In this document: positions 43,208 through 48,073 of the stretch, in pieces | How the letters are laid out: each line of letters starts with the position of its first letter | Position numbering within the stretch: position 1 is the first letter of the stretch | Assembly: GCF_041146345.1 (NCBI RefSeq) | Contig: NW_027191415.1 | Span: 806,001-870,000, forward strand | DNA length: 64,000 nucleotides | DNA from: Neodothiora populina | Lineage: Eukaryota | Reading direction: 5' to 3' | The notes under the pieces: model-generated | What the model was told of the DNA's origin: nothing | The model's database searches: none | What the model saw: the letters and a program-made list of their open reading frames with translations, nothing else | Made by a program: the position numbers and the translations under genes

Positions 43208-44388
43208 ATGCCCGGAGTTCGTGAGTATCAGCCACGTCGTTCCACATTCAGCTATCCTGGACGATTATCGTGACTACCTCTTCTTCTGCTGACACCCGAG
43301 CAGCACCAGATGCCTTCGACCAGGTCAAGAAAGCTCTGAGGGGCATGTTCAGACGGAAGAAGAAGCCCCTCACGGAGAACATTCAACCAGTCAACAAAAC
43401 TACTGCTGCTGCTGCTCCCTCGCCGTCACAACCGGCTCCACCGCCGTCAGCTCCTTCACAGAAATCCTCTCCGATTCATGAACATACCTCGAAACGGCCC
43501 CATACCTCCCACACTTCGCAAACCTCCAACAAGATCCTCTCCGACTCGGAGCCTCTGCCAGAGCTTTTGCCGGAGCTGCGTCCAGAATCTGCATCAGGGC
43601 CAATTGCAATCAATGTACAGACATATGGCGAGCCAGGCAATTCGCATAGACGCCCGCCGACTCCTTCATCTTACAATGCCCCTCGAGAGCTGTCATCTAG
43701 CCCAAGATCACCACATCTTATGTCGCCGCAGTATCTGGCTACTCCCCCGCCGTCGGACTTGTCAGTGTCATCGGCGACTGAGATCGAGAATCACGAGAGC
43801 GAGTCGCACGAATCAGATGCCGAAGCCCCTTCAGAAAAGACTGCGGATAAAGCATCCGAGACTTTACAAGTACCCACAACAGTGGCAGCACAAAGCTTGA
43901 CCACGGCCGAAGCCGCTGTACCACCCAGTCTTGGATCAAATGCTGAGGAGGAAGAGGCAGTAAAGCGTGTCTCCGCAAACGCGAAGGATGGCGCAATACC
44001 GCATGAGGAGGACGTGCACCAGTCCGGTCTTGCGGACTCACGGGAACCTCAATCCGTCGAAGAGCCTTCAAGTGATGGACCGGCCGAGCAAGAAGAACCT
44101 GAACAGCAAGAGCAGAGTGACCACTTGCCGACATCTTCCCGGGATCTTCCCGCTGCAGACTCGCAACCCAAAGACGAAACGGACACTGCAGACATCGATG
44201 CCCAGGCAGCCAGTCTGGCACAGCATGAAGAGCCTCACCACGCCAACGAGGCTGCCCGAAGAGCACCCGCTGTTTTTCACGACGAGAAGATTCCCGTCAT
44301 GGCAGAACCGCCTCAAGTCCGACAAATCTCCATTGCGCCCGGCATGGTGGCCACCTCTGGTCCGCTCGAGGACTTTCCCTTTCGTTAA
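43208..44388 (+). CDS. Hypothetical intrinsically disordered protein
   Basis: ATG CCC GGA GTT C|GTGAGT..GCTGAC..CAG gives MPGVPPDAFDQVKKALRGMFRRKKK. A long Pro/Ser/Glu-rich ORF ends APGMVATSGPLEDFPFR. Confidence 0.75.
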
Positions 44389-45100
44389 ACAACATGTTTC
44401 CTATTGTACATATCATAATTTTCTTGGAACGGCGTAATTCATTGAGAAAAAGATACCACTTATCCGCAGAGGACACGGGTTTTACTGGATGGTTTGGCGT
44501 TTACCGAAAGAAAGAGCCTGTTTCTTTTCTTTTTGTTGTTTTCTTTTATCATTTTCTTCTATTATCTTCCTTTCCTGAATACAGTGCAGCAGCAGCATAT
44601 CCTTGAAGTGCGTCTGGGAGAACCGGTACCAAAACATTACAGTGGTTCCAGCTCTAGCTTGTGGAAACAGAATATCTCAAGTAGTCTTTACAATCGATTC
44701 CCCATTTATAGCTTGTCGATAAGCTCTTCGCTACAATATATTGCAACGAGTCTTTTCCTTCAGTAGAGCAAGAGATTATCGTAAGGCAAGTGATCTATGT
44801 TTATTACGAAAGCGAGCTAAGCGATGTTTGGCGACAAGCGCAGTGAGTTTCACGCTTATACTCCGATACCAAGCTTTCTATAACGATGCATAGAGAGAGT
44901 CGACCAGGGTCCGCCTTCCCGTGCCTGTATAAGATATATTACTACTTTCCATTATCGCGGATTAAGCACAATCTCATGTTATATATAAACCAGGCGCAAG
45001 GTACTCTTTTTCAATTTGTTCATATATATTTATCTAGAAAAACAGTCGCAAGGAAACCCATAGGCTGTATAACGGACAAGAAACCACAAGTGAAACGAGA

Positions 45101-46231
45101 ATGGCATCGCCACCGGGGGACGCATCTCCTCTACTCCCCCTATCCCAAGGTCCTAGAGTAGTGGTATACCACCAAACGCACCATCGAGACGGCAAACCCG
45201 TCTCCATCCTACCACTCATAACCCAGCGAACAGGCGTGACGCACGTCATCATCGCCGCGATCCACCTGAACGAAGGACCAGGCAACATAACGCTCAACGA
45301 CGACCCGCCGCACGCCTCCAAGTTCGGCTCTCTATGGGGCGAAGTGGCCTGGCTGCAGGCGTCCGGCGTCAAAGTGCTAGGCATGCTAGGCGGGGCAGCG
45401 AAGGGGAGTTTCGCGCGTCTTGACACGAGTAATCCAGCAACCAGCGGCGGTGACAATTTCGAAGCCTACTACGCGCCTCTGGCAGCTCTGATTCGCCAAC
45501 GACGTCTCGACGGGCTGGATCTAGACGTCGAAGAGGAGACGTCGTTGCCGGGCATCGTGCGTCTCATCGACAGACTAAAGCGCGACTTCGGGCCTGCCTT
45601 TCTCGTCACGCTCGCCCCTGTCGCCACCGCCCTCTTGCCTGGCCAGCCCCATCTCTCCGGCTTCGACTACGGCGTGCTGGAGCGTATGCGTGGCCCTGAT
45701 ATCGCGTGGTATAACACGCAGTTCTACTGCGGCTGGGGCGACATGCGGACGACGGCGTGGTACGACGCGATTATTTCCTCCGGCGGGTGGCGGCCGTCCA
45801 AGGTCGTTGTCGGGTTGATCACGAATCCGGCGCTCGGGGCCGGGTTCGTGGATCATGGGAATGTGTTTGATGTGCTGAGGGTGCTGAGGGCCAAATACCC
45901 TGATTTCGGAGGCGTCATGGGCTGGGAGTATTTCAACTCGCTGCCGGGTGATGAGGGGAGGCCGTGGGAGTGGGCGGCGGGCATGGCGCGCACCATCAGG
46001 TCTGCGATGCCGCCGGTGGGGCTGGTGGAGGGGGGTAGGGGTGTCGAGGCTCCCGGTGTGGTTGCGGGAGGGGGATTGCTCTCCGGCGGGCATTTGCCGC
46101 AGCAGCCGTTTCCTGCGCAGCATGTTCAGACGTTGCAGGAGTTGGGCTTCTCGCGGCAGCAAGCTGTCGCTGCACTGAACATGACTGGTGGTGATGTGGA
46201 ACAAGCTGCCGGCTTGTTGTTCCCTGAGTGA
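45101..46231 (+). CDS. Cytosolic GH18 endo-beta-N-acetylglucosaminidase (Eng18B/Endo T-like) with C-terminal UBA domain
   Basis: Motifs PRVVVYHQTHH, THVIIAAIHLN, ITLNDDPP, KVLGMLGGAAKGS, catalytic LDGLDLDVEE, WYNTQFYCGWG and GGVMGWEYFN. No signal peptide. UBA: FPAQHVQTLQELGFSRQQAVAALNMTGGDVEQAAGLLF. Confidence 0.88.
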   Translation: MASPPGDASPLLPLSQGPRVVVYHQTHHRDGKPVSILPLITQRTGVTHVIIAAIHLNEGPGNITLNDDPPHASKFGSLWGEVAWLQASGVKVLGMLGGAAKGSFARLDTSNPATSGGDNFEAYYAPLAALIRQRRLDGLDLDVEEETSLPGIVRLIDRLKRDFGPAFLVTLAPVATALLPGQPHLSGFDYGVLERMRGPDIAWYNTQFYCGWGDMRTTAWYDAIISSGGWRPSKVVVGLITNPALGAGFVDHGNVFDVLRVLRAKYPDFGGVMGWEYFNSLPGDEGRPWEWAAGMARTIRSAMPPVGLVEGGRGVEAPGVVAGGGLLSGGHLPQQPFPAQHVQTLQELGFSRQQAVAALNMTGGDVEQAAGLLFPE

Positions 46232-46977
46232 AGGGAAAGTGGTGCAATGGTTATGAGCAAGGGCGGAGTATCGTCACACCTGGACGTCTCTATGATGACA
46301 ACTCACGCATGTGGACGATCTGAAGGCATAGGGAAAGCAGACACGATGGTCTCACATGAAGGGAAGATCAAGCTTGGAGACATTAAGCGTCGGTTGCCTT
46401 GGCCACATGCCTGTCTACAAGAAAACAACTGTCCGAGTCGAGTCCCACTCAATCCCCACCACTGCAAACGACTAATCTCGCTGAGCGTGGACTCGACGCA
46501 CTCTTTGCGAGCAGGAGGAATATTTACAGCAAGGACAAGAGAGAAAAAGCTGCTGAAGTACTTGATTATCCGAGCCAGCCATTTTGTGAGAACAAACAGC
46601 CACGGTGGCCGTGAGAAGAAAAAAATGCTTTCGCAGACGCCCTTACTCCTGGTGTAGCTCCTGCCCTATGCCATGATGCTCCACCTGTACCCTAAAAGGT
46701 GAGAGACGAAGAGAAAAAAAAAAGGAAAAAAAGCTAAGAAATAAAGCTAAGAAAAGGAGTCATGACAACGAGCACCCGCATGGGAGCGTACCTCGATCAT
46801 CTCTCAGACTTTCTCCAATGCCCTGCATCCGCGAGCAGCCATAAGCATAATTTCCGAGTCTTCGTAAGCACGACTCGCGTCGCAGCTGTCGATAGCCGGC
46901 GTCATGATCCTGATTTGTTTTTTTGTTTTTCGTCGCGCGTAGCTTGTGTCGAGCAGCAGCTCAATATAGACACATGT

Positions 46978-48073
46978 TTAGTGGTAGCCGTTTCGGGCGG
47001 TCCTTGTGTTCTCAAAGAAGTAGGGGTGCGCACAAGCCTGCTTGGCACTGATTCTCCCTGCGGGATCATAGACAAGCAGAGCCTCGAGGAGATCGAGACC
47101 TTCGTCGCCGAGTGCTCTAGCGCCCTCGCCAGAAATGATGTCCTCGTCCGTGGCACGAGTCCACTTGGGGAAACTGGGCTTGAAGTCGGGGAAGCTGGTG
47201 ACACCGGGCCAGTCTTGCTCGCTCGGGGTTCCAAGAACACGGAAGATTTTGAAGATCTCGTCGATCTCAGAGTCGCCGGGGAACAGAGGTTTGCGGGTGG
47301 CCATTTCGGCGAAAATGCAGCCGATGGACCACATGTCGACGCCGGTGCTGTATTGACGACCACCAAGGAGAATCTCGGGCGAGCGGTACCACAGAGTCAC
47401 GACCTGCAGGAGGATGAGCGAGTTTTAGGCAAATGAAGAGAGGGCTTGAGCTTACCTCGTGAGTATATGTACGCAGTGGGACACCAAATGCTCTGGCAAG
47501 ACCGAAATCTGCTAGCTTGAGATTACCCTCCTTGTCGATGAGAAGATTCTGAGGCTTGAGATCACGATGAAGGATCCTGTGAGCGTGGCAGTAGCGAATG
47601 CCTTGACACAACTGCATCATGAACCTCTTGACCATGGCCTCGCCCAAGCCGAGATGGCCACCTCTTCCGTCCATGCAACCTTCAGGCAAGGGCTTGCCAC
47701 GTCCACCCTGCGAGACCGGGAGAGCCTCCATGTATTTCTTCAGGTCCAGATCGAGGTACTCAAAGACAAGGTACAGCTTGTGACCGTCGGCGTGGACGAT
47801 GTTGAAGAGGCGCACAATGTTAGGGTCGTTCATTTCCTTGAGCAGGGAGATTTCACGGATGGCGGTCGAGGGAACACCCTCATCTTCGGCTTCCAATCTG
47901 ATCTTTTTTAGGGCAACGATGCGATTGTCGGGTGTGCTGAGGTCTCTGGCTTTGTAGACGACACCGTAGGTACCTATGAGAGCACACTCGAATTAGCGCC
48001 GGTGCGAAAGTGCAATGTTTACTGCAAGGCACCCACCCTCGCCGATCTTCTCCATCTTCTGGTAGTTCTCCAT
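46978..48073 (-). CDS. CDK1: Cyclin-dependent kinase 1 (Cdc28/Cdc2/NimX), 3 exons
   Basis: Motifs [70 protein letters not shown] and [13 protein letters not shown]. Confidence 0.98.

Follow-up and report, generated by a model that had tools for sequence, protein, structure and literature searches.

How does a glycosidase of the cytosol find the glycoproteins it acts on? In filamentous fungi, the deglycosylation of substrates in endoplasmic-reticulum-associated degradation (ERAD) is unsettled: a cytosolic endo-beta-N-acetylglucosaminidase (ENGase) of glycoside hydrolase family 18 (GH18) is the proposed substitute enzyme. Here we analyzed a 64,000-nucleotide window of the Neodothiora populina genome (contig NW_027191415.1, positions 806,001 to 870,000), in which the gene at 45101..46231 encodes a GH18 barrel followed by a ubiquitin-associated (UBA) domain. 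An initial annotation, made from the sequence letters, had read this gene as a cytosolic ENGase that carries its own ubiquitin receptor. We find that this architecture is shared across the Dothideomycetes. The reading we favor, whose chances of being right or wrong we put about level, is that its product is the cytosolic GH18 ENGase in the form typical of Dothideomycetes, with a UBA that would bind ubiquitin and so direct deglycosylation to ERAD substrates.

A single-exon gene joins a GH18 barrel to a UBA domain

The features of the gene are as follows (AF2, AlphaFold2; pLDDT, predicted local distance difference test).

45101..46231, forward strand: complete single-exon coding sequence (open reading frame scan; collinear with 33 orthologous gene models)
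45152..45994, forward strand: GH18 (beta/alpha)8 catalytic barrel, residues 18-298 (PDB sequence matches, AF2 model, Foldseek)
45509..45532, forward strand: DxxDxDxE motif, D137-G-L-D140-L-D142-V-E144 (alignment with Endo T)
45725..45727, forward strand: codon of Y209 (aligned with Endo T Y195; invariant in 33/33 sequences)
45995..46105, forward strand: disordered Gly/Pro-rich linker, residues 299-335 (composition, pLDDT 47-58)
46106..46225, forward strand: C-terminal UBA domain, residues 336-375 (Pfam, PDB match, predicted fold)
46142-46150, forward strand: L348-G349-F350 loop of the UBA domain

The gene is one continuous open reading frame (ORF) from ATG to TGA, with 376 codons for 376 amino acids ahead of the TGA. 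The frame opens at 45038, 21 codons 5' of the start, and its first in-frame ATG is the one at 45101. Collinearity of the ORF from end to end with the models of 33 named orthologous genes supports the initial annotation in calling it intronless. The continuous ORF, together with a matching layout in 119 of 120 homologues, also rules out an artefact of gene modeling. An antisense ORF at 45575-46123 was considered as a gene and set aside: it lies entirely within the conserved coding sequence, and no support for it was seen, although no search was aimed at the ORF itself. One sequencing run, of a kind we could only guess, contained a single contig, of 159 bases and identical to 45750-45908, which is uninformative on expression or transcript structure.

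The protein was also annotated as lacking a signal peptide, and its N-terminus indeed has no hydrophobic segment: Kyte-Doolittle means over 9 residues reach 0.62 at most for windows that begin within the first 25, and the first barrel strand already starts at residue 19 of the AF2 model. The highest 19-residue hydropathy window in the whole protein (1.55) falls within the barrel, and by this measure no transmembrane segment is evident either. Judged by this hydropathy scan rather than by a dedicated predictor, the protein is probably cytosolic. Between barrel and tail, the annotated Gly/Pro linker is evident in composition (10 Gly and 5 Pro in the 38 residues 299-336) and in the low confidence of its model (pLDDT 47-58); across 33 species it is 22-42 residues long.

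The barrel is closest to fungal ENGases

In a sequence search of the PDB, the barrel matched Aspergillus fumigatus 2y8v (E = 9.4e-100) and Trichoderma Endo T, 4ac1 (E = 1.7e-78, 47% identity), and the next match was a bacterial chitinase at E = 2.2e-8. A Foldseek search with the AF2 model, in which the barrel has pLDDT mostly above 90, returned the same two structures at E = 1e-32 to 1e-33 with target-normalised TM scores of 0.90-0.93 (for 4ac1, TM 0.93, root-mean-square deviation 1.7, 47% identity), and the best chitinase at E = 1e-12. Across the sequence and fold searches the E-value distance from the ENGase matches to the first chitinase is about 20 orders of magnitude, and the chitinase matches are at most 22% identical to the barrel. 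Endo T is a proven ENGase (PMC3408457). The closest characterized relatives of the barrel by sequence and fold are ENGases, which bears out the earlier placement of this protein in an ENGase subgroup rather than among chitinases.

The scan for both domains that had been proposed as a check gave a split result. The UBA profile scored above its gathering threshold (see below), whereas the GH18 profile PF00704 reached 26.5 bits against a gathering score of 29.6, even though homology to PDB structures is unambiguous. Applied to the 33 orthologues, the same profile has matches at E <= 0.001 in 32. Since the query shares its (beta/alpha)8 barrel with GH18 proteins of solved structure and carries the DxxDxDxE motif, which in this family holds the catalytic Asp and Glu at the end of strand 4, we count it as a GH18 protein.

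The motif had been reported intact as LDGLDLDVEE, and it stands at residues 136-145 (45506-45535). In the PDB sequence alignment D142 and E144 align with D129 and E131 of Endo T, which are catalytic in that enzyme, and Y209 aligns with Y195, which contacts substrate (PMC3408457). The Y209-Y195 pairing was counted from the alignment, with an offset of 4 between chain index and published numbering taken from the D/E pair. D140, D142 and E144 are invariant in all 33 orthologue sequences. As aligned, the catalytic residues are intact, and the protein would be expected to have ENGase activity.

To place the query we built a tree from 110 GH18 domains, which remained of 172 candidates after we dropped 62 whose match to query residues 15-300 failed to cover positions 25-265. 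The tree comes from a quick search with IQ-TREE under LG+G4, and its only support measure is the Shimodaira-Hasegawa-like approximate likelihood ratio test (SH-aLRT). The query falls in a 31-row clade (SH-aLRT 91) that is sister, at support 80, to a 12-row clade (support 89) of signal-peptide-less proteins from Trichoderma, Metarhizium, Fusarium, Colletotrichum and Chaetomium. Secreted-looking rows, including P0140, a named Endo-T-type precursor, are placed elsewhere in the tree. The Sordariomycete representative P0124 is 60% identical to the query. In this tree the query's clade is thereby sister to the Eng18B/gh18-10 clade of cytosolic ENGases, and by the tree and the E-value gap together the query groups with ENGases, not chitinases.

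This sister clade is where activity and an ERAD link have been shown, and it is for that reason that we presume both for the query. Trichoderma atroviride Eng18B is a 337-residue, intronless protein lacking a signal peptide, in which SMART recognized only a GH18 module and a 'putative linker' (PMC3346758). Neurospora crassa gh18-10 is not N-glycosylated when yeast expresses it. It deglycosylates RNase B, and with it png1-delta yeast regains the ability to degrade the RTL ERAD reporter (bioRxiv 10.64898/2026.03.25.714127). The latter result agrees with the earlier statement that cytosolic members are implicated in ERAD.

The C-terminal tail is a UBA domain

A clear UBA had been called at 46106-46225, and every search of the tail returned the same family. 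Residues 339-370 score 31.0 bits with Pfam PF00627 (E = 2.2e-7), where the gathering threshold is 22.4, and the profile has matches at E <= 0.001 in 32 of the 33 orthologues. The full-length AF2 model, built on a 33-sequence alignment, has a pLDDT of 85.6 and predicts the three helices of the domain at residues 339-347, 352-361 and 366-373, with 10-residue block means of 81-90 over the UBA. Folded alone, the tail again gives three helices (pLDDT 84.6; 10-residue block means 83-92).

The best solved sequence match of the 47-residue tail is the UBA of yeast Ddi1 (2mr9; E = 5.6e-6), with 48% identity over 40 columns by Foldseek, followed by the UBAs of USP13, USP5, plant USP14, ubiquilins, HUWE1 and UBE2K. 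The top rows of the Foldseek search are all UBA-type (USP5, Ddi1, USP13, Mud1 and EDD; TM 0.72-0.78). None of its 175 matches reached E <= 0.001, which is usual for a 40-residue domain, and it is the ranking and the TM scores that carry weight. A protein-atlas look-up of the tail returned generic UBA clusters alone (scores 0.83-0.90) and gave no lead to a donor protein. By these profile, sequence and fold matches the tail belongs to the UBA family.

UBA domains share a hydrophobic x-G-F/Y loop after helix 1 and a hydrophobic helix 3, and in canonical members the L-G-F loop and the helix-3 hydrophobics form the surface that contacts ubiquitin. In the query these hallmarks are L348-G349-F350, L373 and F374, of which G349, F350, L373 and F374 are invariant in 33/33 sequences. 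Judged by its family membership alone, the tail may bind ubiquitin. In the rest of the protein Pfam shows no further module: only GH18 and UBA-type Pfam models score better than E = 0.01, the others being weak overlaps on those two regions, and no ubiquitin-like (UBL) domain is among the seven Pfam families found at E <= 1.

The domain also contains an N-x-T sequon, N360-M-T362 (46178-46186), whose N360 and T362 are invariant in 33/33 sequences. No glycosylation would be expected in a cytosolic protein. The sequon is probably structural, yet a curious thing to find on a glycan-removing enzyme.

The UBA is conserved as strongly as the catalytic domain

Among the 33 named Dothideomycete orthologues, the three parts of the protein differ in conservation as follows.

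UBA tail: mean pairwise identity 70.1%, invariant columns 12/40
GH18 barrel: mean pairwise identity 65.4%, invariant columns 51/281
Linker: mean pairwise identity 25.9%, invariant columns 0/37

With identity of 70.1% against 65.4%, the tail is under constraint as strong as that on the catalytic domain, and the linker behaves as a freely varying tether.

A group of paralogues offers a contrast. Ten rows form this group (SH-aLRT 98) within the tail-bearing clade, and five of them, representing four protein clusters, have complete N-termini that resemble signal peptides (10-residue hydropathy 2.06-2.31): Cercospora (P0190/P0271), Atractiella (P0176), an Oidiodendron cluster (P0293) and an unnamed cluster (P0194). 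In the tails of these secreted-like proteins the three-helix pattern is weak and the loop phenylalanine is gone, the loops reading LGV, KGA, AGA and EGH. In the other five rows either no tail can be detected or the model is partial or fused. By comparison, none of 121 canonical-tail proteins exceeds a hydropathy of 2.2 in its first 30 residues. This pattern, drawn from four clusters with hydropathy as a crude measure, is consistent with upkeep of the ubiquitin-type surface only where ubiquitin is available. That a degenerate UBA remnant should persist on apparently secreted proteins is odd.

The fusion is a class-wide trait with different tails in sister classes

A survey of how widely the fusion occurs had also been suggested. 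Counting as strong any tail of at least 30 bits on a profile built from our own alignment, we found the UBA in 119 of the 120 best whole-protein homologues; the lone exception is a model that ends in the linker. The [LIMV]-G-F loop is present in 115 of the 119 tails. Named carriers are fungal apart from two rows labeled Quercus suber, and the nine genera that were looked up among the named matches, eight of them by taxonomy look-up, are all Dothideomycetes. They span six orders and one genus of uncertain order: Dothideales (to which we take Aureobasidium to belong), Mycosphaerellales, Pleosporales, Venturiales, Trypetheliales and Botryosphaeriales. By these counts the fusion is a trait of the class Dothideomycetes and not particular to the N. 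populina gene. UniRef names one member 'UBA domain-containing protein', so databases detect the architecture automatically. The two Quercus suber rows (P0079 and P0082, 61-63% identical to the query and named 'acidic endochitinase' and 'chitinase 1') are probably fungal sequence in a plant assembly.

Beyond the closest homologues the tail becomes rarer. It is present in 20 of the 150 best cluster representatives at 50% identity; when 81 of the 150 were scanned with Pfam, 11 had PF00627 and 1 more had UBA_7 by itself. No UBA was found in 120 Sordariomycete orthologues (P0124, P0306-P0424), either in precomputed Pfam annotation or with our own profile. Instead, 110 of the 120 end in an acidic tail with the motif F-[DE]-Y-x-[ST]-[DE], usually laid out as a D-P-D patch, (V/L)-P, and then F-[DE]-Y-[YFH]-[ST]-D-G with acidic residues. 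The same motif is present in 10 of 10 named Leotiomycete orthologues from a third search. This tail looks like a short linear motif that binds a partner, conceivably either FFAT-like (an aromatic residue in an acidic tract, tethering to the endoplasmic reticulum) or phosphorylated by CK2. The fungal ENGase papers examined make no mention of an acidic F-[DE]-Y-x-[ST]-D tail.

The third search added 84 new rows, of which 64 stop no more than 25 residues past the barrel. Among these tail-less rows are Lecanoromycetes, Coniocybomycetes, Tuber, Arthrobotrys and two Onygenales. For this survey of tails the class was looked up in the case of Scytalidium, Xylogone, Claussenomyces, Polytolypa, Oidiodendron, Drechslerella and Atractiella, and the remaining class labels are assumed.

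A possible generalization, which we offer tentatively and would not be surprised to see fail, is that the cytosolic ENGase of filamentous ascomycetes is wired to protein quality control by interchangeable, lineage-specific C-terminal address tags: a UBA in Dothideomycetes, F-[DE]-Y-x-[ST]-D in Sordariomycetes and Leotiomycetes, and none in Lecanoromycetes, Onygenales and others. If so, the Dothideomycete glycosidase would read the ubiquitin mark directly, and removal of glycans in ERAD would depend on ubiquitin without PNGase (peptide:N-glycanase) or a Rad23 adaptor. We know of no glycosidase shown to read the ubiquitin mark directly.

A proposed role in ERAD and its alternatives

We propose that a canonical, Ddi1-like UBA, carried on a flexible linker of 22-42 residues, would bind ubiquitin on retrotranslocated, ubiquitinated glycoproteins of the endoplasmic reticulum, or on the ubiquitin-rich machinery of Cdc48/proteasome hand-over. 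The glycosidase would thereby be concentrated on ERAD substrates ahead of their proteasomal degradation. By analogy with its characterized relatives, an ERAD role for the UBA-bearing enzyme is plausible. A class-wide UBA that is conserved like the catalytic domain would be a concrete and easily tested answer to the question of substrate finding in a large class to which many plant pathogens and extremotolerant yeasts belong, and the alternative tails of sister classes provide natural comparison groups. If the proposal is right, a glycosidase would join the enzymes that carry their own ubiquitin receptor.

Several observations weigh against this proposal. Some UBAs do not bind ubiquitin. The protein has no UBL, and therefore cannot be a full Rad23-like shuttle or dock on the proteasome in the manner of Rad23. 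The UBA is absent (0/120) from the Sordariomycete clade that holds the orthologues proven in ERAD assays, so it is no general requirement of the family; these UBA-less orthologues and the tail-less ones (64/84 rows) indicate that the enzyme can function without a ubiquitin receptor. Only four clusters, judged by a crude measure of hydropathy, stand behind the secreted-like contrast. A Venturia protein with a canonical tail (P0138) falls outside the main clade of the tree, and the GH18 profile score of the query is below threshold. The support for the proposal consists of sequence and predicted structure, for this protein and for its UBA-bearing orthologues. Finally, the closest solved homologue of the barrel, 2y8v, was deposited as 'chitinase, ChiC'.

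That title, and the fact that most homologues are named 'chitinase' in databases, could be taken to mean that the barrel is a class III type chitinase and not an ENGase, with a role in the intracellular turnover of chitin or chitooligosaccharides. We regard this as very improbable: the database names are automatic, solved chitinases are distant from the barrel (<=22% identical), and its sole biochemically defined close relatives (Endo T, Eng18B and gh18-10) are ENGases. The listing of 2y8v yielded no activity data, and among the representatives P0127, P0123, P0145 and P0150, where its A. fumigatus cluster was sought, none is near-identical to the crystal chain of 290 residues. A less drastic alternative leaves the enzyme an ENGase and gives the UBA a task other than substrate capture, such as docking to a UBL shuttle (Rad23, Dsk2 or Ddi1) or to Cdc48 cofactors, or stabilizing a proteasome-proximal enzyme in cis against its own degradation. 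UBAs do bind UBLs, and the Dsk2 UBA-UBL complex 2bwe is among the structural neighbors of the tail, whose nearest solved relative is itself the UBA of a shuttle factor, Ddi1. The second UBA of Rad23 acts as an intrinsic stabilization signal, and strong conservation of the tail would suit any specific partner, not ubiquitin alone. Set against this is the invariant L-G-F loop with its helix-3 hydrophobics, which is the canonical ubiquitin surface of UBAs, and sequence alone cannot separate UBL binding from ubiquitin binding. On balance we find this alternative unlikely, but still worth keeping in view.

A little further down in our estimation, and improbable, is the idea that the UBA fold does another job altogether, such as dimerization, autoinhibition of the barrel or binding of some other partner, and that free oligosaccharides of the cytosol, rather than ubiquitinated glycoproteins, are what the enzyme mainly trims. 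In other eukaryotes cytosolic ENGases do act on free glycans released by PNGase, tail-less orthologues occur in several fungal classes, and the secreted-like paralogues keep a UBA-like three-helix remnant with no access to ubiquitin, so the fold can persist without it. It is in exactly those paralogues, however, that the canonical signature is lost, whereas 115 of 119 cytosolic-type tails keep it. Moreover, N. crassa PNG-1 is reported to be inactive, and if the enzyme is inactive in this class too, PNGase would supply no free glycans for trimming.

Comparison with known systems

The enzymes most like the query are Eng18B and gh18-10 (subgroup B5), which share its single-exon GH18 barrel, the DGLDLDVE motif and the lack of a signal peptide, the two groups being sister clades. 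They differ at the C-terminus, where the Sordariomycete enzymes have an acidic tail (110/120) instead of a UBA (0/120). Endo T/Eng18A of Trichoderma reesei (4ac1) resembles the query in fold and catalytic residues. Unlike the query, Endo T is secreted and N-glycosylated and has no C-terminal domain (PMC3408457, PMC3346758).

For the tail, the nearest parallel is the UBA of yeast Ddi1 (2mr9; 2mro has the same sequence), which has the same FP-x-Q lead-in, LGF loop, AA-x-LLF end and C-terminal position. In Ddi1, however, the UBA has a UBL and a retroviral-protease-like domain as its partners instead of a glycosidase.

The metazoan enzyme NGLY1 is linked to p97 through its PUB domain. Yeast Png1 and Rad23 are reported to form a complex. 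Both pairs are analogous to what we propose for the query, since in each a deglycosylating enzyme of the cytosol has a physical link to the ubiquitin/Cdc48/proteasome pathway. In the query, by contrast, the coupling would be covalent and made through a UBA alone, with neither UBL nor PUB, and its chemistry would differ as well: a glycosidase leaves GlcNAc on the asparagine, whereas Png1 and NGLY1 are amidases that convert asparagine to aspartate. The initial annotation spoke of a convergent replacement for Png1-Rad23, which is reasonable as an analogy. Its two premises stand, namely the Png1-Rad23 complex and the inactivity of Neurospora PNG-1; the N. crassa protein is reported to be without enzymatic activity, and inactivating substitutions are found in several other fungal PNG-1 orthologues (PMC3346758).

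The fusion itself was thought to be uncharacterized, and we likewise found no paper on it: searches combining GH18, ENGase, Eng18B or chitinase with UBA returned none in titles and the opening lines of abstracts, with ENGase papers in subscription journals lying outside the search. As far as those titles and openings show, the matches to ENGase and UBA terms were unrelated, concerned NGLY1/RAD23, or were papers on ENGases without a UBA. Neither 'UBA' nor 'ubiquitin' occurs in the papers on fungal cytosolic ENGases that were examined.

Genomic setting and other observations

Two further features flank the gene.

43345-44388, forward strand: upstream neighbor, a 347-residue, Ser/Pro/Glu-rich, low-complexity ORF without a Pfam match
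46905-47992, reverse strand: cyclin-dependent kinase (CDK; Cdc28-type kinase) gene, directly downstream of the ENGase-UBA gene on the opposite strand

The neighboring ORFs that were scanned encode ordinary housekeeping proteins: a CNNM-type transporter, a transketolase-fold E1-beta-like protein, CCT, KCH, Hsp70, a P450, PTPA, the CDK, an AlkB-like oxygenase, a cupin, a BAR-PH protein, Zds, a Miro GTPase and a WD40 protein. No ERAD or ubiquitin family is represented among the ORFs scanned around the gene, and no ubiquitin gene was found among the window ORFs scanned. In two records from metagenome-assembled genomes of lichen fungi (P0088 and P0101) the GH18-UBA protein bears the name 'Cyclin-dependent kinase catalytic subunit'. 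The name seems to have slipped over from the neighboring gene during annotation, which hints that the adjacency of the ENGase gene and the CDK is conserved.

Names elsewhere in the family are equally uneven. The name 'alkaline phosphatase (D)' is attached to many orthologues from Sordariomycetes and Onygenales, and in one 868-residue model (P0135) GH18 is joined to a PhoD domain; a neighboring PhoD gene was likely merged or mislabeled by gene callers. Other partners appear on the ENGase-type barrel in single representatives (P0123, P0136, P0143, P0177 and P0187): ankyrin repeats (in proteins of 400 and 1515 residues), peptidase A4, a lysine methyltransferase and a Zn-cluster/ADH chimera. These may be genuine fusions in some cases and, in others, gene models that were run together.

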